Source: Thermodesulfobacteriota bacterium
GTDB taxonomy: Bacteria; Desulfobacterota; Deferrimicrobia; Deferrimicrobiales; Deferrimicrobiaceae
Reading direction: 5' to 3'
Length of the DNA: 64,000 nucleotides
Assembly (NCBI GenBank): GCA_040758155.1
Contig: JBFLWB010000144.1
Coordinates: 5,481-69,480, forward strand
Part shown: positions 2,816 to 38,136 of the stretch, piece after piece
How the letters are laid out: each line of letters opens with the position of its first letter
Position numbering within the stretch: the first letter of the stretch is position 1
The notes under the pieces: model-generated
The model's database searches: none
Told to the model about the DNA's origin: nothing
What the model saw: the letters and a program-made list of their open reading frames with translations, nothing else
Program-made: the position numbers and the translations under genes

Positions 2816-2893
2816 AGAAGGAAGCGGCCGTCCGGCCGCGCCCGGCGCGGCGGAGATCCGCCTGCCGGGGCGACAGGGCCGGCCGCCGGTGCG

Positions 2894-3337: not shown

Positions 3338-3435
3338 TTCGTCCTCCTGACGCCTCTTGAGATGTCATGGTCACGGATTGACGGCTCGCCGATACCTCAA
3401 AATAGGATTATTCTCGATATCGCAACGGTTCGGTC

Positions 3436-3620: not shown

Positions 3621-3672
3621 AAGTTTTCCGGTGTCTTGCCGATGAATCATCCGGACCGGAAGGAGGCCATCC

Positions 3673-4068: not shown

Positions 4069-4080
4069 CGCCCCGCCGCG

Positions 4081-4383
4081 CTAACTCTCCAGCTTTTCCC
4101 TGACGGCCTGCAGTTTCCCCTCGATCGTTCCCTTCTTGTCGCGCCGGTCGTCGATCCGGATCGAGGTCGACACCCGCATGGCCCCTTCGCCGAAGGGCTG
4201 CTCGTGCATTTTCCTGAGGACGGGCAGGATCGCGTCGAGGTCGCCCTCGATGATCGTTCCCATCGCGGTCAGCTCGTGCTTGAGACCGCTGTCGCGGAGC
4301 ACCCGCTCCACCCCGGCCACAAAGCGGGAAACGCTCGGCGTGGCGGTCCCGAGCGGGACCACGGTGACGAATACGACGGCCAT
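4081..4383 (-). CDS. MTH1187/YkoF-family (UPF0045) small protein
   Basis: MAVVFVTVVPLGTATPSVSRFVAGVERVLRDSGLKHELTAMGTIIEGDLD matches the MTH1187/YkoF ferredoxin-like fold family. An internal Met is chosen as the start over the longer ORF to 4425. Confidence 0.65.
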   Translation of the reverse strand: MAVVFVTVVPLGTATPSVSRFVAGVERVLRDSGLKHELTAMGTIIEGDLDAILPVLRKMHEQPFGEGAMRVSTSIRIDDRRDKKGTIEGKLQAVREKLES

Positions 4384-4444
4384 GGACGACCTCCGTTCCG
4401 ATCGGTTTTCCTGGAAATGTATCATGAATCGCGGCCGGGCATTC

Positions 4445-5215
4445 CTACCCCCGCCGGGACGGCTTCCGCCGCGCGGCGGCGCTCCCGCGGGCGCCGGGCG
4501 TCTCCTGCCCGCGGATGAACCGGGCGAGGCGGCCCACGTTCACCCGAAGGTACTTCCCGTCGCGGCGGGCCATCCCCATCCTGCGGAACCTGCCGAGCTG
4601 CGTCGTCACGGTTTCCCGCGTGGTGCCGATCAGGTTCGCAAGCTCTTCGTGGGTCAGGCGGACCGCGATCTCCGTGCCTCCCGGGGCCTTCACGCCGTGC
4701 TCCCCGGCGAGCCGCAGGAGGATCCTGGCCAGGCGGTGATAGGACCAGGTGTGGCCGAAACTCGCGTACTCCTGCTCGACCTTCGCGAGGCGCCTGGAAA
4801 GGATGCGGATGAAATTCATGGAGAACGCGGGGACCGTCGCCAGCAGTCGCTCGAGCGCGCGCCTGGGAAGGGCGGCGACCTCGGAGTCCTTCCCGGCGAG
4901 GGCCGTGAACGTCCGCCGGTCCTCGGAGAACAGGAGCTCCCCGAAGATCGCGCCGGGCGGGAGCATGTGAAGGATCGTCTCCGTTCCGCGCCCGGAATGG
5001 GAGACCAGCTTGACCATCCCATCCTTCACGATGAAGAGCGCGTCGCCGGAATCTCCCCGCTCGAAGATCACGCGGCCCTTCGGATATTTCCGTTCCGTGA
5101 ACAGGGGGAGGATCCTGTCCAGCTCCGCCTTCTCCATCCCGAGGAACAGGTCGTTCGCCGTGATGACGGAAAGCCCCATGGAATCCAATTTATCGCCCTT
5201 CCGGGGGAAGAGCAA
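4445..5215 (-). CDS. Crp/Fnr-family transcriptional regulator (cNMP-binding domain plus C-terminal HTH)
   Basis: A cNMP-binding beta-roll (GDSGDALFIVKDGMVKL, FGELLF) is followed by a C-terminal HTH (LTHEELANLIGTTRETVTTQLGRFRRMG). There is no Fnr-type N-terminal Cys cluster. The start could be the internal Met at 5179. Confidence 0.85.
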   Translation of the reverse strand: MLFPRKGDKLDSMGLSVITANDLFLGMEKAELDRILPLFTERKYPKGRVIFERGDSGDALFIVKDGMVKLVSHSGRGTETILHMLPPGAIFGELLFSEDRRTFTALAGKDSEVAALPRRALERLLATVPAFSMNFIRILSRRLAKVEQEYASFGHTWSYHRLARILLRLAGEHGVKAPGGTEIAVRLTHEELANLIGTTRETVTTQLGRFRRMGMARRDGKYLRVNVGRLARFIRGQETPGARGSAAARRKPSRRG

Positions 5216-5324
5216 TCCGGTCGGGGGCTATCATCCGGAATTGTGAAAGGTTTCACAGAACGGTTCCTGCGCGGAGAATTACGCTTTCCTTATGCAGACG
5301 CCATGAAGGCGAAAGGGGATCGCG

Positions 5325-6233
5325 ATGGAAAACGAAAGCGGGAGAGGATTCGGCTCCCTTTACATAAACGAAAGGGAAGGCAAGCCGCGGAAAAGGGGAG
5401 TGACGGAGATCCGGGGTCCGTATTACACGCCCCTCGGGAAGCGGGCGCTCCAGGACATCCTGGAAACGATGGGCGAGTACGTGGACATCTTCAAGTTCAG
5501 CGGCGGCTCTTTCGTCCTCATGCCGGAGAAGTCGGTCCGCGACCTGATCGATCTCTGCCACGGGGACGACGTCCTCGTGTCCACGGGCGGGTTCATCGAG
5601 CACGTGCTGACGATGGGGCCGGATGTCGTGGACCGGTACCTCGAGGAGTGCCGGCGGGTGGGATTTGACATCGTGGAGGTATCTTCGGGGTTCATCTCGA
5701 TCCCCGACGACGACCTCGTCCGCCTCGTTGAGAAGGTCCGCGGGCTCGGGATGCTGCCGAAGCCCGAGGTCGGGATCCAGTTCGGGGCCGGCGGCGCAAG
5801 CCCCGCCGCGGAGCTGGAAGCCGAGGGGGTGGCGGACCCGGACCGGGCGATCCGCCAGGCGAAGCGGTACCTGGACGCGGGGGCCCACCTGGTGATGATC
5901 GAGTCGGAGGGGATCACCGAAAACGTCAAGGCATGGCGCACCGGCGTCCCGGCCCGGTTCATCCGGGAGCTCGGGCTGGAAAACGTGATGTTCGAGGCGG
6001 CCGACCCGGACGTGTTTTCCTGGTACGTGAAGTCGTACGGCCCGGAGGTGAACCTGTTCGTGGACCACTCCCAGATCGTGCAGCTCGAATGCCTGCGCTC
6101 CGGTATCTGGGGAACCGCGGGAACGTGGGGCCGCGTGGTCACCTATAAAGTGCCCGCGAGAGGGCGCGCGGCGCCCGCGGCGGGCGTGCGGCAGCTGAAG
6201 GTCGCGGCGAAGGTCCGGGGGAAGGCGGCATGA
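5325..6233 (+). CDS. comA: (2R)-phospho-3-sulfolactate synthase (ComA) family protein
   Basis: Aligns by eye with archaeal ComA across its length (YVDIFKFSGGSFVL, VLVSTGGFIEHVL, GFDIVEVSSGFISIPDDD, YLDAGAHLVMIESEGIT, NVMFEAADPDVFSWYVKSYGPEVNLFVDHSQIVQLECLRSG). Confidence 0.8.
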   Translation: MENESGRGFGSLYINEREGKPRKRGVTEIRGPYYTPLGKRALQDILETMGEYVDIFKFSGGSFVLMPEKSVRDLIDLCHGDDVLVSTGGFIEHVLTMGPDVVDRYLEECRRVGFDIVEVSSGFISIPDDDLVRLVEKVRGLGMLPKPEVGIQFGAGGASPAAELEAEGVADPDRAIRQAKRYLDAGAHLVMIESEGITENVKAWRTGVPARFIRELGLENVMFEAADPDVFSWYVKSYGPEVNLFVDHSQIVQLECLRSGIWGTAGTWGRVVTYKVPARGRAAPAAGVRQLKVAAKVRGKAA

Positions 6234-7627
6234 GCCCCCGGGGCGGGGCCGATTCGGCCCGTCTTCTCCACGGGCGGACGCGGCTCCAGGAACTGTCGAC
6301 GTTCGTGCACCGGGCGGAATGGGACGGCATCTCCCGCGCCGCCCGGAAGGCGCTCAAGATCAGAGTGCTCGATTCCCTCGGGTGCGCCTGGGGCGCCATG
6401 GAGGCCGGACCGATCCGGAAGATCCGGCGGCACGTGGCGGAGTTCGGCGGCAAGCCGCTCTGCACGCTCATCGGGGGCGGCCGGACGTCGCCCGACCGGG
6501 CTGCGTTCTACAATTCCGCTCTGATCCGCTACCTCGATTTCAACGACAGCTACCTCGCGAAGGGGGAGACGTGCCACCCCAGCGACAACCTGGGGGCCGT
6601 GCTGGCGGCGGCGGAATACGCGGGGATCTGCGGGAGAGAGCTGCTCGCCTCCCTCGCGGCGGCGTACCAGGTGCAGTGCCGCCTGTCGGACGTCGCCCCG
6701 CTGCGCGCCCGCGGTTTCGACCACGTCACGCAGGGCGTCATCGCCGCGGCGGCGGGGGCGGGGAGGGCCCTGTCGCTCGACGAGGAACAGCTGGCGAACG
6801 CCCTGGCGATCGCGGCGACCGCGAACAACGCGGTGCGCGCCACCCGGACGGGGGAGCTCTCCCACTGGAAGGGGCTGGCCGCCCCCAACGCGGCGTTCAA
6901 CGGGCTGCGCGCCGCCTTCCTCGCGAAGGAGGGGATCACCGGGCCCGCCGGCGCCTTCGAGGGGCCGAAAGGGTGGATGCAGGTCGTCTCCGGGCCGTTC
7001 GAGATCGATTGGGAGGGCGAGGGGCTGGAGCGTGTGAGCCGCACCGTCCTGAAGAAATACAACGCGGAGATCCACTCCCAGTCCGCGATCGAGGGGCTGC
7101 TCGGCATGATGGAGGCGGAGCGGTTCACGGGCCGGCAGATCGCGCGGATCCGCGTGGAGATCTTCGACGTCGCCTTCCTGATCATCGGGGGAGGCGCCGA
7201 GGGGGACAAGACGGTCGTGCGGACGAAGGAGGAGGCAGACCACAGCCTTCCCTACATCCTGGCCGTGGCCGCGCTGGACGGGGAGGTGACCCCCGCGCAA
7301 TATGCGCCGGAGCGGATCCTGCGGGACGATGTCCAGGAGCTTCTCCGGAAGGTGGAGGTCGTGCCGGATCCCGTCTTTTCCGCCCGTTTTCCGGAGGAGC
7401 ATGCCTGCCGCCTGACCGTCGCCCTGAGAGACGGCCGGATCCTCACCCGGGAGAAGACCGACTACGAGGGTTTCCACACCCGGCCGATGTCCATGGACGG
7501 GGCCGCCGGGAAGTTCCGCCGGGTCGCGGACGGCTCTCTGGATCCCGCGCGGATGGAGTCCGTCATCCAGGCGGTTTCCGGGATGGAGAACCTCACGGCG
7601 AGGGAGCTGGCCGGCTTTCTCGTGTAG
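6230..7627 (+). CDS. MmgE/PrpD-family protein (2-methylcitrate dehydratase-like)
   Basis: A 465-aa protein with MmgE/PrpD-family length and motifs (IRYLDFNDSY, GAVLAAAEYAG, HWKGLAAPNAAFNGLRAAFLAKEG). Its ATG overlaps the comA stop (ATGA). Confidence 0.8.
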   Translation: MSPRGGADSARLLHGRTRLQELSTFVHRAEWDGISRAARKALKIRVLDSLGCAWGAMEAGPIRKIRRHVAEFGGKPLCTLIGGGRTSPDRAAFYNSALIRYLDFNDSYLAKGETCHPSDNLGAVLAAAEYAGICGRELLASLAAAYQVQCRLSDVAPLRARGFDHVTQGVIAAAAGAGRALSLDEEQLANALAIAATANNAVRATRTGELSHWKGLAAPNAAFNGLRAAFLAKEGITGPAGAFEGPKGWMQVVSGPFEIDWEGEGLERVSRTVLKKYNAEIHSQSAIEGLLGMMEAERFTGRQIARIRVEIFDVAFLIIGGGAEGDKTVVRTKEEADHSLPYILAVAALDGEVTPAQYAPERILRDDVQELLRKVEVVPDPVFSARFPEEHACRLTVALRDGRILTREKTDYEGFHTRPMSMDGAAGKFRRVADGSLDPARMESVIQAVSGMENLTARELAGFLV

Positions 7628-8617: not shown

Positions 8618-8690
8618 TTAGTGCATTATAAACAACGATTCCCGCGTTGGTGTATTCTCTTATAATTTGGTTGACCGAGGAGGGCTTGGC

Positions 8691-9995
8691 ATGTCCGGAA
8701 CCGGACCGATCCTGATCGTCGACGACGAAGCGAGCATCCGGCAGTCGCTGGAAGGCGTCCTGGCCGACGAGGGATATTCCTGCATCCTGGCGGGGGACGG
8801 GGCCGAGGCGATAGCGCGGCTCCGGGATTCGCGGCCGGCGCTCGTGCTTCTCGATATCTGGATGCCGGGCATGGACGGCCTCGAGACGTTGCGCCGGATC
8901 AAGGAGGAGAGCCCCCGCACCCCCGTCGTCATGATGAGCGGGCACGCGACGATCTCGACCGCGATCCGCGCCACGAAGGACGGCGCCGCCGATTTCATCG
9001 AGAAGCCGCTGGAGATCGAGACGGTGCTGAACGCCATCCGCCGCGCGCTCGGGTCCGGCGAGGGCGCGGCGGAAGCGGGCGGGGGAGAGGCCTCCGTGCC
9101 GGCCGGCCTTCACGATGCAGCCGAGCTTCCCGAGCTGAAGACCGTGGTGTTCGCGAAGCAGGCGCTTCCCGGCGACCGGATGCCGCAGAGGACGCTCGCC
9201 CGCGGGGCGGTGATGTACGGGCAGGGGCTCCACTCGGGGAAGAAGAGCGGGCTGATCTTCGAGCCGCTCGGGCCCGGATCCGGGATCCATTTCGCCGGCG
9301 TCTCGGACAACCGGCCGATCCCGGCGCACATCGATTTCGTCGGGTCGACCGGATGGGCCACGACGATCCGCCTCGGGACCACCCAGGCGGCCACCATCGA
9401 GCACGTCATGTCCGCGCTGAACGCGTACGGGATCTCCAACCTGCTCGTCAAGTGCGACGGGGAGGTTCCGGTCCTGGACGGCTCCGCCGTCGAGATCTGC
9501 AACCTGATCGAGGAAGTCGGAATGGTGGAGCAGAAGGGGGACTGGCGGCGGATCGCGCTTTCGGAGCCGATCCAGGTCGATTCGGGGAAGGCGTCGATCC
9601 GGCTGGAGCCGTTCGACGGGTTCGAGATCGATTACACGCTCGAGTACCCCGCGCCCGTCGGGAAGCAGCGCTTCGTATTCCGCCTCGGCGACCCGTCGGA
9701 CTTCCGCAGGGAGATCGCCCCGGCCCGGACCTTCGGATTCGCCAGGGACATCGGCGCGCTGCAGAAGCAGGGACTTGCGCTGGGAGGCCGCTTCGACAAC
9801 TTCGTCCTGTTCGGGGACGAGGGGCCGATCAACGGAGCGCTCCGGTTTCCGGACGAGCCCGTCCGCCACAAGATCCTCGACGCGTTCGGCGACTTCTACC
9901 TCCTCGGGCGGCGCCTCCAGGCGAGGGTGATCGCCCGCATGACGGGGCATTCGCACAACATCGCCCTGCTGAAGAAGGTCCGCGAGCTGATGTGA
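8691..9995 (+). CDS. Response-regulator receiver domain fused to an LpxC-type deacetylase domain (REC-LpxC)
   Basis: The N-terminal REC (ILIVDDEASIR, VLLDIWMPGMDG, VVMMSGH, FIEKPL) is followed by a full LpxC fold that aligns with E. coli LpxC (RTLARGAVMYGQGLHSGKKSGLIFEP, TIEHVMSALNAYGISNLLVKCDGEVPVLDGSA, ARTFGFARDIGALQKQGLALGGRFDNFVLF, VRHKILDAFGDFYLLG, MTGHSHNIALLKKV). Zinc-ligand and catalytic positions are conserved. A GAGGAGGG ribosome-binding site lies 7 nt upstream of the ATG at 8691. Confidence 0.85.
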   Translation: MSGTGPILIVDDEASIRQSLEGVLADEGYSCILAGDGAEAIARLRDSRPALVLLDIWMPGMDGLETLRRIKEESPRTPVVMMSGHATISTAIRATKDGAADFIEKPLEIETVLNAIRRALGSGEGAAEAGGGEASVPAGLHDAAELPELKTVVFAKQALPGDRMPQRTLARGAVMYGQGLHSGKKSGLIFEPLGPGSGIHFAGVSDNRPIPAHIDFVGSTGWATTIRLGTTQAATIEHVMSALNAYGISNLLVKCDGEVPVLDGSAVEICNLIEEVGMVEQKGDWRRIALSEPIQVDSGKASIRLEPFDGFEIDYTLEYPAPVGKQRFVFRLGDPSDFRREIAPARTFGFARDIGALQKQGLALGGRFDNFVLFGDEGPINGALRFPDEPVRHKILDAFGDFYLLGRRLQARVIARMTGHSHNIALLKKVRELM

Positions 9996-10024
9996 CCATC
10001 AGAATACCTACCGGAGAGACAGCC

Positions 10025-11056
10025 ATGCGAACGAGAACGCCGATTCACCTCTTCCTCGCGGCCCTTGCGGCCGGAATCCTCTGCGCGCCCGTACCCGCCT
10101 CCGCCGCCGCGGACGCGCCGATCAAGCTCACCTACGCCAACTTCCCGCCCGCCCCCACCTTCCCCTGCGTGCAGATGGAGCACTGGGCGCGGGAGGTGGA
10201 GAAGCGGACCGCGGGGAAGGTGAAGGTCCAGACCTTCCCGGGCGGGACGCTTCTCCCCGCGAAGAACATCCTGGACGGCGTCATATCCGGCCTCGCCGAC
10301 ATCGGGAACTTCGCCATGAGCTACCAACCGGGCCGGTTTCCCTTGTCCGAGGCCATCGACCTCCCGCTGGGGTTCACGAGCTCCCGGGTCGCCAGCCTGA
10401 CGCTTTACGACCTCATGGAGAAATACAAGCCGAAGGAATTCGACCAGGTGAAGATCCTGGCGCTCTTCACCTGCCCCCCGACCAACTTCATGACCCGGAC
10501 CCCCGTGAAATCGCTCGCCGACCTCAAGGGGATGGAGCTCCGGGTGGCGGGGACCTCCGCGGAGATCGTCAAGCGGCTCGGCGGGATCCCGGTCGCCATG
10601 CCGCAGTCCGAGACCCCCGAGGCGATCCAGAAGGGGGTGGTGAAGGGGATCGTCTCCTCCATGGAGATCCTCCAGGACTTCAAGTTCGCGGCCTATACGC
10701 CCAACGCCACCGTCGCCAACCTGCCCGTGGTCTCCTTCGCGGTCGTGATGAACAAGCAGAAGTGGGACTCTCTGCCGGCCGACGTGAAAAAGGTCCTGGA
10801 CGACATGCGGCGGGAACACTCCCTTTGGACCGGGAACTACGTCGACGGCCACGTGGAGGAGGCGCTGGGCTGGTCGAAGAAGAGCTACGGGCTCCAGGTC
10901 CACACCCTTCCCGCGAGCGAGGCCGAGACCGTGAAGGGGCTGCTCCGGCCGCTGACCGAAGATTACATCAAGCGGGTTACCGCCCTCGGCCTGCCCGGCG
11001 ATCAGATCGTCGCCGACGCGCTGGCGCTGAAGAAGAAGCACGAGCTGCAGAAATAG
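10025..11056 (+). CDS. dctP: TRAP transporter substrate-binding subunit (DctP family)
   Basis: A signal peptide is followed by DctP-family solute-binding features (LTYANFPPAPTFPCVQMEHWAREVEKRTAGKVKVQTFPGGTL ... GMELRVAG). The gene is an internal-start portion of ORF 9353..11056. Confidence 0.85.
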   Translation: MRTRTPIHLFLAALAAGILCAPVPASAAADAPIKLTYANFPPAPTFPCVQMEHWAREVEKRTAGKVKVQTFPGGTLLPAKNILDGVISGLADIGNFAMSYQPGRFPLSEAIDLPLGFTSSRVASLTLYDLMEKYKPKEFDQVKILALFTCPPTNFMTRTPVKSLADLKGMELRVAGTSAEIVKRLGGIPVAMPQSETPEAIQKGVVKGIVSSMEILQDFKFAAYTPNATVANLPVVSFAVVMNKQKWDSLPADVKKVLDDMRREHSLWTGNYVDGHVEEALGWSKKSYGLQVHTLPASEAETVKGLLRPLTEDYIKRVTALGLPGDQIVADALALKKKHELQK

Positions 11057-11066
11057 CGGATCCGCA

Positions 11067-11552
11067 ATGGGACTGGAAAGGCTGACGGAGCTGCTCCGGC
11101 GGGGGCTGATGTACCTCGCCGGAGCAGCGCTGCTGGGGGTCACGCTGCTGGCGACGGCCAACGTCGTCCTGCGGATCTTCCGGGTCCCCGTGGGCGGCGC
11201 CTACGAGGTCGTCTCCTTCCTCGGGGCGCTCGTCACGGCCGGCGCGCTCGGCTACACCCAGAAGCGCAGGCACCACATCGTGGTGGACATCCTCTCGGAC
11301 CGGTATCCTCCCGCGCTCAAGCGCGTCGTCGACCGGGTAAGCCAAGCCGCCATGCTCCTCCTGTTCGCCGTCGTCTCCTGGCAGACGGCGGCCTACGGGG
11401 TGCGGCTGATCCGGGTGGGGGAGCTCTCGGAGACGCTGAAGTTCCCGTTCCACCCCTTCGTGTTCCTCGTCGCCCTGGGTTTCGCCGTCCTCGCGCTGAC
11501 GATCTTCCTCGATCTCGTGGAGTCCTTCTGGGCAGAGGAGGAGAAGCGTTGA
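11067..11552 (+). CDS. dctQ: TRAP transporter small permease (DctQ family)
   Basis: A 161-aa protein with four predicted TM segments, sized and placed between DctP and DctM. Confidence 0.8.
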   Translation: MGLERLTELLRRGLMYLAGAALLGVTLLATANVVLRIFRVPVGGAYEVVSFLGALVTAGALGYTQKRRHHIVVDILSDRYPPALKRVVDRVSQAAMLLLFAVVSWQTAAYGVRLIRVGELSETLKFPFHPFVFLVALGFAVLALTIFLDLVESFWAEEEKR

Positions 11553-12853
11553 GCGGTCCCGCCATCGGCCTGCTGGGGATCGGGGCGATGTTCCTCATCC
11601 TGTTCCTCCTGCGCATCCCCGCGGCATTCACCATGATGCTCGTGGGCTCCGCGGGGATCGCCCTGATGACCTCGTTCGACGCGGCGTGCGCGATCGTAGG
11701 GACGGAGATGTGGAACATCTTCTCGAACTACGGGCTGACGGTGATCCCGCTGTTCATCCTGGTGGGGGAGATCGTCCACTACGCCGGCTACAACTTCAGC
11801 GTCTACGACGCGACGTACAAATGGTTCGGGCACTTCCGGGGCGGGCTCGCCATGACCACGATCATGGCATCGGCGGCCTTCTCGGCCATCTCGGGGTCCA
11901 ACACGGCGACGGCGGCCACGATGAGCGCGGTCGCGATCCCCGCGATGAAGGAGTACAAGTACCACCCGCTGCTCAACGCCGGCGCGGTCTCCGCGGGCGC
12001 GACGCTCGGCGTCCTGATCCCGCCCTCGCTCGTCCTCGTCGTGTACGGGCTCTACACGGGGCAGTCCATCGGGAAGCTGTTCTTCGGCAACATCATCCCC
12101 AGCGTCATCTTGACGCTGGCCATCCTCGGCACGGTGGTTTGGATCTGCCGCATCCATCCCGACTGGGGCGCGGCGGGGCCGCGGTTCGGATGGAAGGAGC
12201 GGCTGAAGGCGCTGCCGGAGGCGGCCGACATCCTCGTCCTCTTCGGGATCATCATGTACGCGATGTTCACCGGGGTCGTCACCGCGACGGAGGCGGCCGC
12301 CGTGAGCTGCTTCCTCGGATATGCGATATGCCTTGCGAGACGCAAACTTACATGGAAGAAGTTCATCGATTCCATGAAGGACACCCTGCGGATCTCCTGC
12401 ATGGTCTTCATGATCGTGGCGGGCGCGGTGGTCTTCGCGCGCTTCCTGACGCTGACCCGCCTGCCGTTCGAGATCGCGGAGTGGATCGGAACGCTCGCCC
12501 TCCCCCGGTGGATGGTCCTGTGGGTGATCCTCGGATGCTACATCCTGGGCGGCTGCGTCATGGACGCCCTTGCGTTCCTCCTCGTGTCGCTGCCGATCTT
12601 CTACCCGCTGGTCGTCCAGCTCGGCTACGACCCGATCTGGTTCGGGCAGGCGGTGACGATCGTCACCACGATGGGCGCCATCATGCCTCCCATCGGGATC
12701 TGCTGCTACGTCGTCTCCGGGATGTCCGGCATACCGTTATCGACCGTCTTCCGCGGCTCCTTCTACTATTTCCCCGCCTACATCGTCTCCATCGTCATCC
12801 TCATGATCTCCCCGTACTGGACGGTGCTCGTGCTGTCCGACATGGTGCGGTGA
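11549..12853 (+). CDS. dctM: TRAP transporter large permease (DctM family)
   Basis: A 434-aa polytopic membrane protein of DctM type (LFILVGEIVHYAGY, GSNTATAATMSAVAIPAMKE). Its start overlaps the dctQ stop. Confidence 0.85.
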   Translation: MSGPAIGLLGIGAMFLILFLLRIPAAFTMMLVGSAGIALMTSFDAACAIVGTEMWNIFSNYGLTVIPLFILVGEIVHYAGYNFSVYDATYKWFGHFRGGLAMTTIMASAAFSAISGSNTATAATMSAVAIPAMKEYKYHPLLNAGAVSAGATLGVLIPPSLVLVVYGLYTGQSIGKLFFGNIIPSVILTLAILGTVVWICRIHPDWGAAGPRFGWKERLKALPEAADILVLFGIIMYAMFTGVVTATEAAAVSCFLGYAICLARRKLTWKKFIDSMKDTLRISCMVFMIVAGAVVFARFLTLTRLPFEIAEWIGTLALPRWMVLWVILGCYILGGCVMDALAFLLVSLPIFYPLVVQLGYDPIWFGQAVTIVTTMGAIMPPIGICCYVVSGMSGIPLSTVFRGSFYYFPAYIVSIVILMISPYWTVLVLSDMVR

Positions 12854-12870
12854 CGGGAGTACGCGGCTCC

Positions 12871-14703
12871 ATGAACCGTCCGATGCTCATGCTGGGAAAC
12901 GAAGCGATCGCGCTCGCGCTGATCGAGAACGGCTGCCGGGTCGCCGCGTCGTACCCGGGGACGCCCGCATCCGAGATCCTCTCCGCCGTGGCGAAGCTGC
13001 GCAACGATCGCGGGATCCCGATGCACGCGGAATGGTCGGTGAACGAGAAGGTCGCCTTCGAGATCGCCTACACCGCGAGCGTCGCGGGGCTGCGCGCGGC
13101 GGCGGGCATGAAGCAGGTGGGGCTGAACGTGGCGTCCGACCCGCTGATGAGCGCCGTCTACTCGGGCGTGAAGGGCGGCTTCCTCGTCATCTCCGCGGAC
13201 GACCCCGGTCCGCACTCCTCACAGACCGAGCAGGACAGCCGGCTCATGGCGATGGTCGCCAAGCTCCCCGTGCTCGACCCCGATTCCCCCGCCCATGCCC
13301 GGGATCTGGTGGCGCTCGGGTATGAGCTGTCGGAAAAGTTCGAGATCCCCGTGATGCTCCGCCCCACGACGCGTGTGTGCCACGCGTGCCAGGACATCCT
13401 GCCCGGCGATTCCGTTCCTCCGGCGGGAGAGGCCGATTTCCGGAAATCTCCCTCCCGCTGGGCGGCCACGCCGGTCTTCCGCAACCTGCTTCACAAAGAG
13501 CTGACCACGAAGCTGGCAGAGATCGCCGGGTGGGCGCCGACCGCTCCGATCCGATGGAATCCGGACGCGTCGGGGACGCGAGCCGTTGTCGCCTCCGGCG
13601 TCGCCGCGGCCCACGCTCGGGAGGTCCTGGAAGGGCTCGGGCTGTGGGGGAGCGTGCCCTTTTACCAGGTGCTCCAGCCGTTTCCTCTGCATGCCGACTT
13701 CGTGTCCCACGTCCTTGGAAGCTACGGGGAGATCCTCGTGCTCGAGGAGACGGCAGCGGTCATCGAGATGCAGCTTCTCGACCGGGGGCGCGTCAGGGGG
13801 AAGGCGACCGGCGCTGTGCCCGAGGCGGGGGAGCTGCTGCCGGAGGAGATCGAGCGCATCGTCTCGGAGTTCGCCGGGATCGGGGCGGGAAAACCCGCGG
13901 AGAGGGGTGCGCCTCCGCCGGGCCGCCGTCCCACCCTGTGCGCGGGATGCCCGCACCGCGCGAGCTTCTACGCGATCCGGCGCGCCGCCCCCAACGGGAT
14001 CTACCCGAGCGACATCGGCTGCTACACGCTGGGGCTGAACCTGGGGGCGGTCGACACGGTCCTGTGCATGGGTGCGGCGGTCGGCCAGGCAGCGGGCTTT
14101 TACCAGGCATACCGGCTCGGCGGGAAGACGGTCGACATCGTCGCGACGATCGGCGACTCCACCTTCTTCCACGCGGGGATCCCCGGGCTGATCGACGCGG
14201 CGGTACAGAAGGCGAAGTTCGTCCTCGTGATCCTCGACAACGCGATGGCGGCCATGACGGGAGCGCAGCCCACGCCGGCTACCGGGTGCGGGGCGATGGG
14301 CGAGCCGACCGGTATCGTCGACATGGAGGCGCTCGTCCGCGCCTGCGGCGCCGGCTTCTGCAAGGTGGGAACGCCGTCCCGGTTCGACGAGTTCGTCGCC
14401 CTCCTCAAGGAGGCGCTCGCGTACAGCCGCGAGAACGGCCCGGCCGTGGTGATCGCCCGGGAGCCGTGCGTGATGTCGCTTGGGGGGAAGGCGCGAGCGG
14501 ATGCCCCGAAGGCGGTCGTCACCGACGCGTGCGCCGGCTGCCGGCACTGCGTAGACCGGTACGAGTGCCCGGCGATCGTCTTCGACGAGGATGGGAAGCG
14601 CGCCTGCATCGACGGGTTCCACTGCGCGGGCTGCGGCGTCTGCCTGCACGTCTGCCCCCTGGGCGCGATCCGCGCCGGCGGCGGGGAAGGGGGGGCGCCG
14701 TGA
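12871..14703 (+). CDS. iorA: Indolepyruvate:ferredoxin oxidoreductase alpha subunit (IorA)
   Basis: N-terminus MLMLGNEAIALALIENGCRVAASYPGTPASEIL, a TPP-binding region (GCYTLG, IGDSTFFHAG) and a C-terminal 2x[4Fe-4S] ferredoxin domain (CAGCRHCVDRYECP ... CAGCGVCLHVCP). Confidence 0.9.
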   Translation: MNRPMLMLGNEAIALALIENGCRVAASYPGTPASEILSAVAKLRNDRGIPMHAEWSVNEKVAFEIAYTASVAGLRAAAGMKQVGLNVASDPLMSAVYSGVKGGFLVISADDPGPHSSQTEQDSRLMAMVAKLPVLDPDSPAHARDLVALGYELSEKFEIPVMLRPTTRVCHACQDILPGDSVPPAGEADFRKSPSRWAATPVFRNLLHKELTTKLAEIAGWAPTAPIRWNPDASGTRAVVASGVAAAHAREVLEGLGLWGSVPFYQVLQPFPLHADFVSHVLGSYGEILVLEETAAVIEMQLLDRGRVRGKATGAVPEAGELLPEEIERIVSEFAGIGAGKPAERGAPPPGRRPTLCAGCPHRASFYAIRRAAPNGIYPSDIGCYTLGLNLGAVDTVLCMGAAVGQAAGFYQAYRLGGKTVDIVATIGDSTFFHAGIPGLIDAAVQKAKFVLVILDNAMAAMTGAQPTPATGCGAMGEPTGIVDMEALVRACGAGFCKVGTPSRFDEFVALLKEALAYSRENGPAVVIAREPCVMSLGGKARADAPKAVVTDACAGCRHCVDRYECPAIVFDEDGKRACIDGFHCAGCGVCLHVCPLGAIRAGGGEGGAP

Positions 14704-15284
14704 ACGGGCGCGCGGTGCGGGGCGGGGATGTCCGTCAGCAGATCCTCGTCAGCGGCGTGGGGGGGCAGGGGGTGCTCTTCGTTTCCCGGCTCCTGGCCGA
14801 GGCGGCCATCTGCCGCGGGATGAGCGTCCTGACGTCCGAGATCCACGGCATGGCGCAGCGGGGCGGGACGGTGGTGTCCCACGTGAAGGTGGGCGGCTTC
14901 CCGGGTCCCCTGATCCGCGAGGGGAAGGCCGACGGCATCGTCGTGCTCCGGGAGGAGAACCTTCCCGCCCACCGGCGCTTCCTGTCTCCTTCCGGGTGGG
15001 CCGCGGTGAATTCCACGGCCCCGGGGGCGGCTCCCCCCGATCCCCGCGTCCTTTTCGTCGACGCCGGGGGGATCGCGGTGAAGGCGGGGATGCCGAAAGG
15101 GATCAACCTGGTCCTGATCGGGTATCTTCTCGCGCGGCTCGATTCCGCGGGAGAGGGGGGGCGGATCTTCTGCGAACCGGAAGACATCCGGGAGGCGCTG
15201 GGCGCCCGCTTCGCGCGGAATCCCCGCGTCCTAGAGGAGTCCCTGGCGGCGTTCGCGCTGGGAATACGTCACGGTAGGGAATGA
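14700..15284 (+). CDS. iorB: Indolepyruvate:ferredoxin oxidoreductase beta subunit (IorB)
   Basis: A GTG start overlaps the iorA stop. Contains ILVSGVGGQGVLFVSRLLAEAA, the typical IorB/gamma-like CoA-binding Rossmann motif. Confidence 0.8.
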   Translation: MNGRAVRGGDVRQQILVSGVGGQGVLFVSRLLAEAAICRGMSVLTSEIHGMAQRGGTVVSHVKVGGFPGPLIREGKADGIVVLREENLPAHRRFLSPSGWAAVNSTAPGAAPPDPRVLFVDAGGIAVKAGMPKGINLVLIGYLLARLDSAGEGGRIFCEPEDIREALGARFARNPRVLEESLAAFALGIRHGRE

Positions 15285-16588
15285 GGTATCAAGCCATGCT
15301 CAAAAGATTCCCCCCGAAATACTCATCCGTCGACGCGCTTCCCGGCTACCAGCTCCGGGGGCTCCAATGGACGGTGTCGCACGCCTTCCGGCACTCCCCC
15401 TTCTACCGCCAGCGCCTCGAAGCGGCGGGGGTGACGCCCGGAGACATCCGCTCGCTCGACGACATCCGGCGGCTCCCCTTCACGACGGCGGACGACCTGA
15501 GGGAGGGGTACCCGCTGCCGCTTTTGTCGGTCGATCCGAAGGAGATCGTGCGGATCCATTCCTCCTCGGGGACCACGGGGAAGCGGAAGGTCCTTTGCTA
15601 CACGCAGAAAGACGTCTCCGACTGGGGCTGCATGTTCGCCCGCTGCTTCGAGATGGCGGGGCTCACGCAGGAGGACCGTGTTCAGATCTGCGTGGGGTAC
15701 GGGCTCTGGACGGCCGGGGCGGGCTTCCAGGCGGGAGTGGAGAAGTTCGGCGCGATGGCCATCCCCGTGGGGCCGGGGAACCTCGACCTGCAGTGCACCT
15801 TCCTGCTCGATCTGCGGTCGACCGTCCTCTGCTGCACCGCCTCCATGGGGCTGCTGCTGGCGGAGGAGGTGCACCGGCGGGGGATCCGCGGCCTGCTCAA
15901 ACTGAAGAAGGTCATCCTCGGGGCGGAGCGGACCAGCGACGCGATGATCGCGACGATCAAGGCGCTGCTGGGCGTCCGGGAGGTGTACGACATCCCGGGG
16001 CTCACGGAGCTGTACGGCCCCGGGACGGGACTGTCGTGCCGCCACGAGTCGGGGATCCACTACTGGGCCGACTACTACATCCTCGAGCTGCTCGACCCGG
16101 AAACGCTGGAGCCGGTCAAGCCCGGCGAGATCGGGGAGATGGTGTTCACCACGCTCGGCAAGGAAGGGTCGCCCCTCATCCGGTACCGGTCGCGCGACCT
16201 GACGCGGACGGTCGAGGGCGTCTGCCAGTGCGGCTGCATCCTGCCGCGGCACGACAAGATCCTCGGCCGCTCCGACGACATGATCGTCTTCCGGGGAGTC
16301 AACGTGTATCCCGGGCAGCTCGACGAGGTGCTCTCAAGGATCGACGGGGCCGGAAGCGAGTTCCAGGCGCACATCGAGCGGCGGGAGGACGGGAAGGACT
16401 ACATGACCATCAAGGTGGAGCGGGGGGCCCACATGGGCGAGGGCGCCGACGGCCCCATCGCCTCCGCGATCGCCGGGGAGATCAAGCACAACCTGATGGT
16501 ATCGTGCAACGTGCAGGTCGTCCCGTACGGGTCGCTCCCGAGGTCCGAGAAGAAGACCCGGAGGGTGTTCGACAGCCGCGTGTTCTGA
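15281..16588 (+). CDS. paaK: Phenylacetate-CoA ligase (PaaK) / coenzyme F390 synthetase family
   Basis: Shows the SSGTTGKRKV AMP-binding motif, PaaK-like length (about 435 aa) and a C-terminal domain (GVNVYPGQLDEVL). The ATG overlaps the iorB stop; an alternative start is at 15296. Confidence 0.85.
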   Translation: MRYQAMLKRFPPKYSSVDALPGYQLRGLQWTVSHAFRHSPFYRQRLEAAGVTPGDIRSLDDIRRLPFTTADDLREGYPLPLLSVDPKEIVRIHSSSGTTGKRKVLCYTQKDVSDWGCMFARCFEMAGLTQEDRVQICVGYGLWTAGAGFQAGVEKFGAMAIPVGPGNLDLQCTFLLDLRSTVLCCTASMGLLLAEEVHRRGIRGLLKLKKVILGAERTSDAMIATIKALLGVREVYDIPGLTELYGPGTGLSCRHESGIHYWADYYILELLDPETLEPVKPGEIGEMVFTTLGKEGSPLIRYRSRDLTRTVEGVCQCGCILPRHDKILGRSDDMIVFRGVNVYPGQLDEVLSRIDGAGSEFQAHIERREDGKDYMTIKVERGAHMGEGADGPIASAIAGEIKHNLMVSCNVQVVPYGSLPRSEKKTRRVFDSRVF

Positions 16589-16616
16589 GGGGGCATCCGC
16601 GCTCCGGAGGCGGACT

Positions 16617-17171
16617 TTACGGTTTCGAGACGAACGGATTCCCTCTGATGTAGAACCGCAGGAGCCGGCCGGCCCAACGGCGGCCGGCGTAGTCGACGCC
16701 GACCCGGGGCCTCTTCACGATCGCGGCGGGGGAGGCGCCGGGCTCCTCCGCGATGAAAAAACCGTCGCCCGTCAGGTCGTGCGCGTTCAGGCGCCGGTCG
16801 ATCCCCATCGCCTTGCACAACCGGCCCGGCCCGTTCGTGGCGGCGTCGACGTTCGCCACCGGTTCGAGGGCGCGCAGCAATACGGCCGAGGCGTGCCCTT
16901 CGCCCTCCGTGACCACGTTCATGCAATGGTACATGCCGTACACAAGGTAGATGTACGCGTGTCCCGGCGGCCCGAACATGACCCGGGTCCGCCCCGTCAT
17001 CCCCTTCGACGAATGGCAGGCGAGGTCGTGCGGCCCGACGTACGCCTCGACCTCCACGATCCGCGCGACCCGGTCCTTTCCGTCAACGTTGTGGACGAGC
17101 AGCTTCCCGAGCAGCTCCTGGGCGACTTCCACGGTGTTCCTGTCGTAGAAGGAGCGGGGGAGCTTCTTCAC
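16617..17171 (-). CDS. DNA-3-methyladenine glycosylase (Mpg/AAG family)
   Basis: A 184-aa protein with a GTG start overlapping the upstream activase stop by 4 bp. Carries the family pattern AQELLGKLLVH...ARIVEVEAYVGPHDLACHS...GHAYIYLVYGMYHCMNVV. Confidence 0.8.
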   Translation of the reverse strand: MKKLPRSFYDRNTVEVAQELLGKLLVHNVDGKDRVARIVEVEAYVGPHDLACHSSKGMTGRTRVMFGPPGHAYIYLVYGMYHCMNVVTEGEGHASAVLLRALEPVANVDAATNGPGRLCKAMGIDRRLNAHDLTGDGFFIAEEPGASPAAIVKRPRVGVDYAGRRWAGRLLRFYIRGNPFVSKP

Positions 17172-17950
17172 GTCCGCGGAGCCTCCGCCTCCAGTGCCGA
17201 CAGCGCGGCGCCGAGGGCGCCGACGAGCTGCGGGTCGGGGACCACGGCAACAGGCGCGCCCAGCGCCTGCGACAGGGCGTCCACCATCGCCGGGTTCAGC
17301 GCGACGCCGCCGCTCATGAACACCCTGGCCCCCGCGGGGACCGGGCCGACCAGCGAAGCCACCCGGCTCGCAAGCGCCGCGTGCAGCCCCTTGACGATGT
17401 CCTCCACCGGCTCTCCGCGCGCGACAAGGGAGACGACTTCGCTCTCCGCGAAGACGGTGCAGGTGCTGGTCACAGGGACCGTGCGGGAGGCGCGCGCGAC
17501 GTATTGCGCCACCTCGCCCGGCGGCACCCGGAGCCGCGCCAGGACGACTTCCAGGAAGCGGCCGGTTCCGGCGGCGCACTTGTCGTTCATCGCGAAGTCG
17601 AGGACGGTTCCGCCCGGCCCGACGCGGACGACCTTCGTGTCCTGCCCGCCGACGTCCACCAGGATGCCGGGCTCCCGGGTCCGGAAGAAGGCGCCCCGGG
17701 CGTGGCAGGTGATCTCGGTGAGCGCCCGGGTTGCGGCGACGCGTCTGCGGCCGTAGCCCGTCGCGCCGACGGGAACCGCAGGAACGCCGCCTTCCGCGCC
17801 GAGGGAGGCGAGCGCCCGTGCCGCCTGCTCCTCGATGCGGGGGTCGGCCGGCTCGAGGAAGGAGGCGACGATCCGTCCTTCGCCGTCGATGGCGACCGCC
17901 TTGAAGGTCGTGCTGCCGGCGTCGACGCCGACGGATGCGGGAGCGCTCAT
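17168..17950 (-). CDS. CoA-substrate-specific enzyme activase (BadF/BadG/BcrA/BcrD-type ATPase, HgdC-like)
   Basis: Contains VGVDAGSTTFKAVAID and the diagnostic MNDKCAAGTGRFLE motif. The protein is 260 aa. Confidence 0.85.
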   Translation of the reverse strand: MSAPASVGVDAGSTTFKAVAIDGEGRIVASFLEPADPRIEEQAARALASLGAEGGVPAVPVGATGYGRRRVAATRALTEITCHARGAFFRTREPGILVDVGGQDTKVVRVGPGGTVLDFAMNDKCAAGTGRFLEVVLARLRVPPGEVAQYVARASRTVPVTSTCTVFAESEVVSLVARGEPVEDIVKGLHAALASRVASLVGPVPAGARVFMSGGVALNPAMVDALSQALGAPVAVVPDPQLVGALGAALSALEAEAPRT

Positions 17951-19272
17951 TCGAACCCCTCCATGAAGGCCTGCAGGCGGTGATCGGCCTGTTCCTCCGA
18001 CCAGGCGCGCGGATCCGCGTGGTCCGCCTCCAGCAGCAGCGCCCGGACCCCCGCCTCCGAGACGAGGCGTCTCTGGAGGTCCACCTGGCCGATCGAGTAC
18101 GGCTTGCACGAGCGGTCGCTGTGAAGGATCGCGCCGGCAGCGCCGTACTCCCGGCAAAGCCGCTTCATGAGGGCGAGCCGGTACGGAAGGTCCCGGTTGA
18201 GGAACACGTGCAGATAGGCGCGCGCCATGGAACCTTCGGGATCGGAGGGATCGACCAGGGCGCCGGCATCGGCCCAGGCGCTCGTGTAGGTGGAGCAGAC
18301 GATGTTGAACCCGTTTTCCGCAAGCCGGGTGGAAAGCTCGCGGAGCCGGAACCACACGGGCAGGTTGTCCCAGAGCAGTCGCACCCGCTCGTCCGCGATG
18401 CCGCCCACGCCGCGCGCGGCGCGGTCCTTCAGCTCGTCCCGGAGCATCCGGTAATAGCGGTTGCACTCGGCGGTGCCGCGGATGGCGACGATCGGGGCCA
18501 GGTGGAAGAACGCGTCGAACCCGGTCCATGGGGACGGCCTCGCCCGACCGGCCTCCAGGCACTCCCCCCAGAGCAGCGAGCCTTCGCGGGAGCGGCGCAG
18601 CGTTTCGGCCAGCGCTTCCCGGTCCAGCCTGCGGCGAGCGATCCGTTCCGCCGTCGCGGCGAGCTCCAGAAGCTGCTCCGCGACGTAGTCCAGGTGACGC
18701 GGCTTCGCCTCGCCGTACAGGAATGGGGCATCGATGACGACGAGTGGGACGCGGAAGCGGTCCGCGAGGGCTCGGTACCAGTAAAGGACCGTCTGGCAGA
18801 TGTTCGTGCAGCAGCAGAGCAGGTCGGGGCGGGGGAGGCGCCCCACGGGGGTCGTCCCCGTGACGGCGCAGCCGATGTCGGCGCGCGCGTAGCCGCAGAG
18901 GTCCCTCGAATAGCCGAGCCGCTCCACCGCCGCGGAAAGGTCCGGGACCATGCGCTTCACCGAGCAGATCGCGGCGTGGTTTTCAGGGTAGACCGTATGG
19001 AATCCGAGCGCCCGCAGAATCTCGACGGGGAAGCCGGAGGTGACCCAGGCGACCGGAACGGCGCCGTCGGCGTACCGGCCCGCAAGGTAATGGAGGGAGG
19101 TCAGCTCCTTCAGCTTGCGCGTGGATTCCAGGGGGGGGCCGAAGGGACCGGTCGGACGTGTCCTACCCTTGCGCCCCGCGCGCGCACGGATCCGCGAAAC
19201 CGCGGAGACCGCGGACAAGGCCGCTCCACCGTATCGCGCCAGTGCTTCATATTGAATCCTTCGTAATATCAA
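17947..19272 (-). CDS. 2-hydroxyacyl-CoA dehydratase / benzoyl-CoA reductase B-C family subunit (HgdA-like)
   Basis: A 441-aa protein with an N-terminal VAWVTSGFPVEILRALGFHTVYPENHAAI pattern and the conserved Cys spacing of the HgdAB/BcrBC family. Its stop overlaps the activase start. Confidence 0.7.
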   Translation of the reverse strand: MILRRIQYEALARYGGAALSAVSAVSRIRARAGRKGRTRPTGPFGPPLESTRKLKELTSLHYLAGRYADGAVPVAWVTSGFPVEILRALGFHTVYPENHAAICSVKRMVPDLSAAVERLGYSRDLCGYARADIGCAVTGTTPVGRLPRPDLLCCCTNICQTVLYWYRALADRFRVPLVVIDAPFLYGEAKPRHLDYVAEQLLELAATAERIARRRLDREALAETLRRSREGSLLWGECLEAGRARPSPWTGFDAFFHLAPIVAIRGTAECNRYYRMLRDELKDRAARGVGGIADERVRLLWDNLPVWFRLRELSTRLAENGFNIVCSTYTSAWADAGALVDPSDPEGSMARAYLHVFLNRDLPYRLALMKRLCREYGAAGAILHSDRSCKPYSIGQVDLQRRLVSEAGVRALLLEADHADPRAWSEEQADHRLQAFMEGFE

Positions 19273-20363
19273 TTTGATGGATACCTATATTTTAAGTTCT
19301 CCACGAATGCTTCCAGTCGGGTGGCTGCCTGTGCGGGCATCTCCTTTTCCAGCCCGGTTTCCAGCAGCAGCACAGGCGCGCCGAGACCGGCGAACCGCTG
19401 CAGGATCGCGGGGACGTCGAAGCTTTCAGGCTCGCAGAATTTCGGGATGTGAACGACAAGCCCCGCGGAACCCGACCGCCGATACAGCCCCTCCAGGTAA
19501 GCCATCCTGCGCACCAGGTCCGCAGAGCGGGTCGGGCAGGGAGGCAGCCGGAACGGAAGGACGGAAAGCCGGTCGAGCGGGTCCGCGTCCTCATCTTCCG
19601 AAGGAAGGGGGATTCGTCGCCCGATCGCGGCGTAATCGTCGGCGGCCACGTAGGCGCCCGCGGCGTCCAGAAGATCGAAGAGGGTCATGGGCTCCGGAAC
19701 ATAACCGGTGACCATCAGGGGGATCCCGCTCCTGCGGCGCCCTTCGCGGATCCCGCGCACGGCGTCCTCCAGCTCCGCGAGGTGATCTTCGGGCCAGAGA
19801 TATTCGCCCCGGCGGAGCAGGCGGTACAAAGCGCCGTCGTCCGTCTCGAGATATGCGCGCCGGGACAGCAGCGTCCCGCGTAGACGGTCGATCTTGGCTT
19901 GAAGCGCTATCGCCTCCCGGAGCCGGCCGGCATCCGGCGGTTTGCCGGTCAGGCGGGAAAGCTCCCCGGCCAGCGCCTCCAGCTCCGAGCGGACGAATTT
20001 CCTTGCGGAAGGGCGGTCCTCCCCCTTCGGGTGATGGTATCGGAACGCCGGCTTCTCCCAGCCGCCGAGGTCGGGGGCGAGGGTCGCCAGCCCCTGGAGG
20101 GCGTCGCAGGTGTGGGGGATCAGGAGCGCGTCCGCATCCTTCCCCCCGCCCGACGCGAGGAACGCGAGGGCGTTGCGCGCCACGGCGCATACGTAGCTCT
20201 GGATGCGCCCGGAATCCGGCCCGCGGGGAGGGCCGGGCGGGCCCCACAGCTCCACCGCGTGGACATCCATCGCGGTGAGCAGCTCCCGCGGGTAGAACAC
20301 CGGCAGGACGATCGCGGTCTTCCTGCCGAGTTCCTTCTGCCGGGCGATGACTTCAGTTCGCAT
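19269..20363 (-). CDS. 2-hydroxyacyl-CoA dehydratase / benzoyl-CoA reductase B-C family subunit (HgdB-like)
   Basis: A 364-aa protein with AIVLPVFYPRELLTAMDVHAVELWG and LIPHTCDALQG, patterns typical of this family. Translationally coupled to the downstream subunit. Confidence 0.7.
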   Translation of the reverse strand: MRTEVIARQKELGRKTAIVLPVFYPRELLTAMDVHAVELWGPPGPPRGPDSGRIQSYVCAVARNALAFLASGGGKDADALLIPHTCDALQGLATLAPDLGGWEKPAFRYHHPKGEDRPSARKFVRSELEALAGELSRLTGKPPDAGRLREAIALQAKIDRLRGTLLSRRAYLETDDGALYRLLRRGEYLWPEDHLAELEDAVRGIREGRRRSGIPLMVTGYVPEPMTLFDLLDAAGAYVAADDYAAIGRRIPLPSEDEDADPLDRLSVLPFRLPPCPTRSADLVRRMAYLEGLYRRSGSAGLVVHIPKFCEPESFDVPAILQRFAGLGAPVLLLETGLEKEMPAQAATRLEAFVENLKYRYPSN

Positions 20364-30747: not shown

Positions 30748-30753
30748 GCCCGC

Positions 30754-35018: not shown

Positions 35019-35762
<744 letters not shown>

Positions 35763-35766
35763 GCCC

Positions 35767-38130: not shown

Positions 38131-38136
38131 CGCCGC

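Follow-up and report, generated by a model that had tools for sequence, protein, structure and literature searches.

A receiver-fused LpxC next to a conserved TRAP transporter, oxidoreductase, and ligase cassette: evidence for two neighboring units in a Thermodesulfobacteriota genome

Contig JBFLWB010000144.1 of the Thermodesulfobacteriota bacterium assembly GCA_040758155.1 carries an unbroken row of seven genes in which an LpxC deacetylase fused to a receiver domain (REC-LpxC) precedes the genes of a tripartite ATP-independent periplasmic (TRAP) transporter, a two-subunit indolepyruvate-type 2-oxoacid:ferredoxin oxidoreductase (IOR), and a PaaK-like ligase. This arrangement raises the question of whether an envelope enzyme and a metabolic cassette form a single functional unit or are simply neighbors. 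Within the 64,000-nucleotide stretch that we analyzed (hereafter the window), the seven open reading frames (ORFs) occupy positions 8691-16588 of the plus strand in the order REC-LpxC, DctP, DctQ, DctM, IorA, IorB, and PaaK-like, with successive intergenic distances of 29, 10, -4 (TTGA), 17, -4 (GTGA), and -4 (ATGA) nt. The three 4-nt overlaps, all located within the cassette, constitute translational coupling. All seven genes lie on one strand with short gaps and without an internal terminator in simple consensus scans, as is typical of an operon, while their domain assignments have Pfam and NCBIfam E values ranging from 1e-19 to 1e-188. The GC content at third codon positions is high in all seven ORFs (0.91-0.94 where measured), as in true coding frames, and the genome, a Thermodesulfobacteriota MAG with Candidatus Deferrimicrobium/MBNT15-type organisms as its nearest named relatives, has 67% GC. 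The arrangement is not due to chance, since related genomes share this order of genes. A previous interpretation made from the letters of the window (the sequence-only reading) had likewise reported seven plus-strand genes with short gaps and ATGA/GTGA overlaps at this location, and its coordinates, gaps, and all seven domain assignments agree with our own. However, it had also treated the seven genes as one functional module, and this view did not survive the comparisons described below. Our best explanation, which as a whole we hold with rather better than even confidence, is that the locus consists of two independent units, the LpxC gene (8691-9995) and a six-gene cassette (10025-16588), that were joined by a rearrangement.

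The evidence for two units comes from a comparison of the genomic context of homologues of REC-LpxC and of DctP, with the loci numbered L001 onward. The cassette is present in eight loci, namely the window, L001, L002, L084, L085, L086, L089, and L090. The seven-gene order is retained in L001, L002, and L084, all of which encode LpxC proteins 77-80% identical to that of the window and have lpxC-dctP spacings of 220, 122, and 148 nt, respectively. In L086, an intact six-gene cassette is located 5.7 kb away from REC-LpxC, while L089 and L090 contain intact cassettes with different neighbors and without an adjacent LpxC. The dctPQM genes of L085, a Nitrospirota locus, are divergent from iorAB-paaK and no LpxC is present. 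Conversely, 15 full-length REC-LpxC loci from several phyla (L003-L017, 42-75% identity) contain no homologues of DctP, IorA, or PaaK up to 10 kb away, which means that 15 of the 19 other full-length loci checked encode REC-LpxC without the cassette. Co-occurrence of all seven genes across genomes therefore fails, as lpxC and the cassette are apart in most loci and their adjacency is limited to the closest relatives. The synteny comparison, which the sequence-only reading had itself called for, accordingly upholds only part of its proposal: the six-gene order is kept across relatives, but lpxC is separable from it. We conclude that DctPQM-IorAB-PaaK-like is a conserved six-gene functional unit found in two phyla and that lpxC is its neighbor. 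The narrower claim that IorAB, an AMP-forming ligase of the PaaK type, and a dedicated TRAP importer make up one functional module is borne out by this conservation.

How the two units came to adjoin is apparent from L086, in which the lpxC and Pur_DNA_glyco genes are convergent direct neighbors only 34 nt apart. Both the lpxC end and the glycosylase end of this locus align to the corresponding ends in the window, where the 6.6-kb cassette is placed exactly between the two genes. Since the cassette lies between genes that adjoin in L086, the comparison indicates that a translocation in the window lineage put it between lpxC and the DNA glycosylase gene. Further evidence for local rearrangement is provided by the placement of a trio of genes encoding CHASE2-HD (GYP-type), OmpA-like, and FecR-like proteins, which in the window (28738-31892, minus strand) is separated from the cassette by 12 kb but comes directly after the ligase gene in L086 (15578-18703) and L089 (15768-18936). 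The glycosylase gene of the window is itself a 320-aa minus-strand ORF (16617-17579) with a methylpurine DNA glycosylase domain and a low-complexity, Arg/Gly/Ala-rich N-terminus of ~130 aa; its true start is probably internal, near 17190, because the proteins of its relatives are 183-190 aa in length. Proximity of lpxC and ior genes was also observed a second time, in the Desulfobacula, Desulfotignum, and Desulfobacterium metagenome-assembled genomes (MAGs) represented by L027, L064, L066, and L074, where a plain LpxC gene and an oppositely oriented gene for an IorA homologue (33-45% identity) are ~3 kb apart, probably as a result of shared ancestry within one family.

The lpxC-dctP junction was the next point of comparison, as it bears directly upon whether the seven genes are expressed together. 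The spacers of L001, L002, and L084 share a conserved promoter-like element (TTCCAAA...GGTGTAT), and every one of the relatives has at least 120 nt of noncoding DNA with promoter-like hexamers before dctP, whereas the window alone has a 29-nt spacer (9996-10024, plus strand) without this element. The cassette of the window genome would thus have lost its own upstream region, with 29 nt remaining. Simple consensus scans detected no promoter-like or terminator-like sites inside the cluster, and folding of the lpxC-dctP junction and of the paaK 3' end yielded z scores of -0.8 and -0.7, which are no better than those of shuffled controls. A riboswitch in the lpxC-dctP spacer was also considered but found no support, as no RNA families were identified by Rfam either in the window or in the three related loci scanned. 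Upstream of lpxC, the intergenic region that separates it from a divergent minus-strand TudS/DUF1722 gene (8618-8690) contains, by direct reading, a TATAAT (8661-8666) and a strong ribosome-binding site (GAGGAGGG, 8677-8684), although the consensus scan called no full promoter there. Because only a 29-nt gap and no terminator precede dctP, transcription of the cassette in the window genome probably depends on read-through from lpxC or on initiation within the lpxC gene. A single transcript spanning all seven genes, as the sequence-only reading had supposed, is therefore physically plausible in this genome, but the coupling is probably an accident of rearrangement specific to it rather than a sign of functional partnership. 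If the seven genes were instead a true unit, REC-LpxC might, for example, be a phospho-controlled enzyme (amidase or deacetylase) that acts on an N-acyl aromatic compound, or it might regulate the pathway. The short gap, the lack of a terminator in the window, and the adjacency kept in L001, L002, and L084 all speak for such a unit. However, it is at odds with the 15 REC-LpxC loci that lack the cassette and the four cassettes that lack an adjacent REC-LpxC, with the separate promoter-like spacer in the relatives, and with the insertion evident from L086, while the protein itself exceeds the equivalog threshold for LpxC, retains every LpxC-specific residue, and has no DNA-binding domain. We regard a seven-gene unit as extremely improbable, the least credible of the alternatives considered here.

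With two units distinguished, we turn to what the cassette is likely to transport. Three adjacent plus-strand genes encode all three TRAP components: DctP, the solute-binding protein with a Sec signal peptide (10025-11056, ATG start; PF03480, 5e-42), DctQ, the small membrane subunit (11067-11552, ATG start; PF04290, 2e-19), and DctM, the large membrane subunit (11549-12853; PF06808, 3e-81). DctM starts at a TTG that overlaps the dctQ stop, an overlap that recurs in relatives, and it scores 279.8 against TIGR00786 (cut-off 268.45). The best solved relatives of DctP are 4N6D (E 2e-108) and the Dde_0634 entries 4PGN, 4PGP, and 4NAP (E 2e-100). DctP scores 340-366 bits versus Dde_0634 and 4N6D and ≤122 bits versus all other solved TRAP binding proteins, the next of which reaches an E value of only 4e-34. 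Identity to Dde_0634 is 46% over the full length, with 69% positives. A conserved arginine pairs with the ligand carboxylate in TRAP binding proteins; a candidate for it in DctP is the arginine of the MELRVAG motif, whose counterparts in the alignment lie in MEIRGAG (Dde_0634) and LEVRASG (4N6D). Judged by its scores against the solved members, DctP belongs to the Dde_0634/4N6D subfamily of binding proteins. Two studies describe Dde_0634 as binding indole-3-acetate (PMC9543091, PMC9973260), and a third has a D-amino acid in 4NAP (PMC10443332). Because DctP falls within this subfamily of indole-3-acetate binders, an aromatic acid is the likely substrate of the TRAP system, in keeping with what the sequence-only reading had put forward. 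We take 4PGP to be Dde_0634 with indole-3-pyruvate and 4NAP to be the same protein with D-tryptophan. The Dde_0634-0636 system of Oleidesulfovibrio alaskensis G20 resembles that of the window not only in its binding-protein subfamily but also in its DctP-DctQ-DctM order and gene sizes. It differs in that the TRAP genes of G20 and of Desulfohalobium retbaense stand alone, without ior or paaK, whereas those of the window and its relatives accompany iorAB and a gene for a PaaK-like ligase. This association is therefore a new context for the Dde_0634 subfamily, and the cassette represents the first genomic setting in which binding proteins of this type, crystallized with indole ligands but so far not assigned to a pathway, are tied to IOR and to a ligase of the aryl-acetate-CoA type.

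The aromatic assignment has to be weighed against public annotation, in which the TRAP system of this lineage carries the name C4-dicarboxylate (PMC9386147). If the name were right, the transporter would carry a C4-dicarboxylate or another 2-oxoacid, and IorAB and the ligase would act upon non-aromatic 2-oxoacids or acids. Such a reading could also draw upon the modest identity between DctP and Dde_0634 and upon the scores of IorA, IorB, and the ligase, all three of which fall under equivalog cut-offs (see below). It is nonetheless very unlikely in our estimation, given the wide separation in bit score between the Dde_0634/4N6D pair and every other solved TRAP binding protein, the tight linkage of DctP, seen repeatedly across two phyla, to genes of the IOR and PaaK families, and the fact that IOR alpha/beta and phenylacetate-CoA ligase are the best family matches by wide margins. 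Thus, the C4-dicarboxylate label of the lineage is probably wrong for the transporter of the cassette.

The remaining three genes of the cassette encode its enzymes. IorA, the alpha subunit (12871-14703, plus strand, ATG start; TIGR03336, 2.7e-188), contains POR_N, a thiamine pyrophosphate-binding domain, and two [4Fe-4S] motifs that are readable in the translation as CxxCxxCx5CP and CxxCxxCxxxCP. IorB, the beta subunit (14700-15284, plus strand, GTG start overlapping the iorA stop; PF01558, 2e-26; NF004916, 1.5e-58), contains a POR gamma-like domain, and together the two proteins display the two-subunit IOR architecture. Their scores of 627.1 bits for IorA (TIGR03336 cut-off 650.9) and 197.9 bits for IorB (NF004916 cut-off 227) are slightly under the respective cut-offs, and therefore we consider both to be family members while withholding equivalog status. 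The last gene (15281-16588, plus strand, ATG start overlapping the iorB stop) encodes an AMP-forming ligase with an AMP-binding domain (PF00501) and a PaaK-type C-terminal domain (PF14535). As it scores 365.3 bits against an equivalog cut-off of 646.3 for TIGR02155, we have filed it as a PaaK-like aryl-acetate-CoA ligase rather than as PaaK. Its closest PDB entries, 4R1L (E 3e-96) and 2Y27 (E 7e-91), are annotated as phenylacetate-CoA ligases, the former presumably from Bacteroides. In Bacteroides, the AMP-forming ligase linked to IOR is an arylacetate-CoA ligase (PMC13285125). The window locus shares with that pair the placement of IOR alpha and beta genes beside a PaaK-type AMP-forming ligase, while its first three genes encode a TRAP importer, with no other accessory gene, and its host is a Thermodesulfobacteriota/MBNT15-type MAG. 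As such, the cassette is a known kind of IOR-ligase module with an added transporter and is in this sense ordinary.

From what is observed, namely the genes present, the families to which they belong, their coupled translation, and the preservation of all six as a unit, we infer a substrate and a direction for the pathway. DctPQM would import an aromatic carboxylate from the periplasm, the PaaK-like ligase would activate aryl-acetate to aryl-acetyl-CoA, and IorAB would then use reduced ferredoxin and CO2 to reductively carboxylate aryl-acetyl-CoA to aryl-pyruvate, which general aminotransferases would turn into tryptophan, phenylalanine, or tyrosine. An aryl-acid route to aromatic amino acids exists in Methanococcus maripaludis. 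For the importer, the ligase, and IOR to act serially upon a single imported molecule, the order must be aryl-acetate to aryl-acetyl-CoA to aryl-pyruvate, and therefore we favor salvage of imported aromatic acids into aromatic amino acids as the moderately probable role of the cassette. If this direction is true, the widespread sediment and peat bacteria of the lineage would scavenge auxin-like and phenyl acids for their aromatic amino acids.

The opposite direction would have imported aryl-pyruvate oxidized by IorAB to aryl-acetyl-CoA and reduced ferredoxin, with the ligase either running in reverse (AMP and pyrophosphate to ATP, with release of aryl-acetate) or serving as a parallel entry to aryl-acetyl-CoA catabolism. 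Several observations weigh against salvage, and some of these also lend this oxidative scheme its appeal. We take 4PGP to hold indole-3-pyruvate, which is the oxidative substrate of IOR, and a Dde_0634 protein that accommodates both ligands would fit a funnel with two entries. For the Deferrimicrobium-type lineage, amino-acid fermentation via 2-oxoacid:ferredoxin oxidoreductases has been predicted (PMC9386147). Genes for a HadBC-like 2-hydroxyacyl-CoA dehydratase and its activase, which are enzymes of amino-acid fermentation, are neighbors of the cassette in L001, L002, and the window, in the last of which they lie just downstream on the opposite strand. The assignment of salvage is further tempered by the 46% identity of DctP to Dde_0634, which leaves the substrate a sequence-based proposal, by the solitary TRAP genes of G20 and D. 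retbaense, and by the sub-cut-off scores of IorA, IorB, and the ligase. On the other side, AMP-forming ligases normally drive thioester synthesis and have been argued to favor acyl-CoA synthesis and hence biosynthesis, whereas the characterized oxidative aromatic pathway uses a phosphotransacylase and a kinase instead of a ligase (PMC13285125). That pathway, the HpdDEFG-HpdJ-HpdK system for tyrosine oxidation in Clostridium scatologenes, also employs a 2-oxoacid:ferredoxin oxidoreductase to interconvert aryl-pyruvate and aryl-acetyl-CoA, but it conserves ATP by its phosphotransacylase and kinase, while the window locus encodes neither of these two enzymes but an AMP-forming ligase (PMC13285125). 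In addition, downstream genes of aryl-acetyl-CoA catabolism travel with the cassette in none of the eight loci, and the dehydratase genes are not conserved with it in L084, L085, L086, L089, and L090. The oxidative scheme, including the joint roles it gives to the ligase, is consequently a tentative alternative that we consider doubtful. The same reasoning applies to ATP conservation through the ligase, which the sequence-only reading had entertained and which is unlikely because the ligase is AMP-forming.

The dehydratase genes were also evaluated as a possible part of the cassette unit and rejected, as their strand is not that of the cassette and five of the eight loci with the cassette lack them. 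In the window, they comprise an acyl-CoA dehydratase activase (TIGR00241) and two HGD-D subunits (17168-20363, minus strand) that are convergent with the ligase gene. The HGD-D subunits are closest to 2-hydroxyisocaproyl-CoA dehydratase HadBC (PDB 3O3M, E 2.5e-60), and neither a CoA-transferase nor a 2-hydroxyacid dehydrogenase is found beside these genes in the window.

The second unit of the locus, REC-LpxC (8691-9995, plus strand, ATG start), is in our opinion the more interesting of the two and a moderately novel variant of a well-known enzyme. The 434-aa protein consists of an NtrX-type receiver (residues 7-117; PF00072, 2e-31), a low-complexity linker of ~45 residues, and an LpxC deacetylase domain (residues 166-430; PF03331, 1e-79), and it has no DNA-binding domain. 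The sequence-only reading had left this protein as an unexplained LpxC-fold regulator. Our results recast it as a genuine LpxC: the deacetylase domain scores 208.9 against TIGR00325, above the equivalog cut-off of 187.25, and aligns to Pseudomonas aeruginosa LpxC including the EH, TFGF, HKxxDxxGD, and GH motifs. An exact-sequence look-up of the window protein returned no match, and relatives were used instead. Among 20 homologues (42-100% identity) from Deferrimicrobium-like, Bdellovibrionales-labelled, Syntrophaceae, Syntrophorhabdus, Thermodesulfovibrionia, Chrysiogenia, and Acidobacteria MAGs, the zinc and catalytic residues E237, H238, T347, H393, K394, D397, D401, and H420 are invariant, as are the receiver residues D11, D12, D55, S83, and K105. 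The receiver is most similar to NtrX/NtrC receivers (NCBIfam; PDB 4D6X, 5M7N). By homology, REC-LpxC is therefore an LpxC with all of its catalytic residues intact and a canonical NtrX-type receiver. It matches the canonical LpxC proteins of Escherichia coli, P. aeruginosa, and Aquifex aeolicus in its TIGR00325 score, zinc ligands, and catalytic Glu/His/Thr/Lys/Asp, and it differs from them by the N-terminal receiver and linker. The C-terminal tail of E. coli LpxC serves its FtsH-dependent turnover, and REC-LpxC appears to lack this tail because it ends right after the catalytic domain. No second LpxC is encoded within the window, and REC-LpxC would be the LpxC of the cell placed under direct phospho-control. 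An AlphaFold2 model of the protein was too poor (mean predicted local distance difference test score 52.6, predicted template modeling score 0.35), and no inter-domain inference was drawn from it.

An exhaustive search of 1.84 billion representative sequences, combined with Pfam, revealed that REC-LpxC belongs to a family of fusions found in several phyla. The longer fusions (proteins P0366-P0401) join a complete NtrX-like regulator to the enzyme. The longest form, REC-AAA+-lid-HTH_8-LpxC, has an AAA+ domain of the sigma-54 type, is 650-736 aa in length, and forms at least 15 clusters; its member P0367 resembles NtrX in possessing Walker A while lacking the GAFTGA loop. An intermediate REC-HTH_8-LpxC form is represented by P0376 (491 aa), while the REC-LpxC form to which the window protein belongs is 412-461 aa in length and forms at least 18 clusters. 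The LpxC domains of the fusions are 48-60% identical to that of the window, versus 37-43% for plain LpxC proteins. These relationships suggest that REC-LpxC may descend from an NtrX-type regulator that was fused to its target enzyme and subsequently lost its AAA+ and HTH domains. In L013, a gene for an NtrY-like kinase (NtrY_N-HAMP-PAS-HisKA-HATPase; 2402-4606) overlaps REC-LpxC (4603-5883) by 4 nt, and in L011 a kinase C-terminus (100-417) is directly upstream of REC-LpxC (461-1720). An NtrY-like kinase of this type is the likely cognate kinase of the fusion family and would phosphorylate Asp55, probably tuning the activity or stability of LpxC. No histidine kinase resembling that of L013 is encoded in the window by tblastn at E ≤ 1e-10. 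A kinase and sigma-54 regulator pair also occurs ≤3 kb from REC-LpxC in L003, L016, and L017, but the pair downstream of REC-LpxC in L003 was discarded as a candidate conserved partner, since its position is not conserved. Of two further regulatory genes upstream of the cluster in the window, one encodes a stand-alone receiver-domain protein (3673-4068, plus strand) that L001 and L002 share, and the other encodes a Crp/Fnr-type regulator (4445-5215, minus strand).

There is precedent for control of lpxC by regulators of the NtrYX and NtrC types. In Rhodobacter sphaeroides lacking NtrYX, lpxC mRNA increases 8.8-fold and more lipopolysaccharide is produced (PMC7240162), while lpxC is the sole target of DVU2934 in Desulfovibrio vulgaris (PMC3333781). 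The fusion family resembles these systems in its NtrX-like receiver and in the NtrY-like kinases upstream of REC-LpxC in L013 and L011. The difference is that the former exert transcriptional control over a separate lpxC, whereas the fusions carry the receiver, and in the longer members also AAA+ and HTH domains, on the enzyme itself. A 2025 review of lipid A regulation does not mention a receiver or response-regulator fusion, and we found no description of a receiver-LpxC fusion in the literature, our coverage of which was incomplete and amounts to absence of evidence only. With evenly balanced confidence, we propose that REC-LpxC is the smallest form in a hitherto undescribed family of NtrX/NtrC-type regulator-LpxC fusions that would stand in for proteolytic control of the E. 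coli FtsH type. Control of LpxC has mainly been known in the form of regulated proteolysis. Receiver-fused LpxC would then exemplify two-component control of the enzyme itself, which is directly testable, and it would provide a "Rosetta-stone" link from NtrYX-type systems to envelope synthesis.

Other genes near the two units also merit brief mention. Directly 3' of the PaaK-like gene in L090 and on the same strand is a gene (15588-16592) for a putative outer-membrane protein with a faint Pfam match to DUF3187/Phenol_MetA_deg, which may form a channel through which hydrophobic or aromatic substrates cross the outer membrane. Upstream of the cluster in the window, a ComA-type phosphosulfolactate synthase homologue is followed, after a 4-nt overlap, by an MmgE/PrpD-family dehydratase (5325-7627, plus strand). 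Both proteins score far under the equivalog cut-offs, and L001 and L002 have a 2-oxoacid:ferredoxin oxidoreductase in place of this pair. Further downstream in the window, a 1555-aa AsmA/DUF748 (TamB-like) envelope protein (39631-44298, plus strand) follows an ABC/FtsX/HlyD export set (35019-39327).

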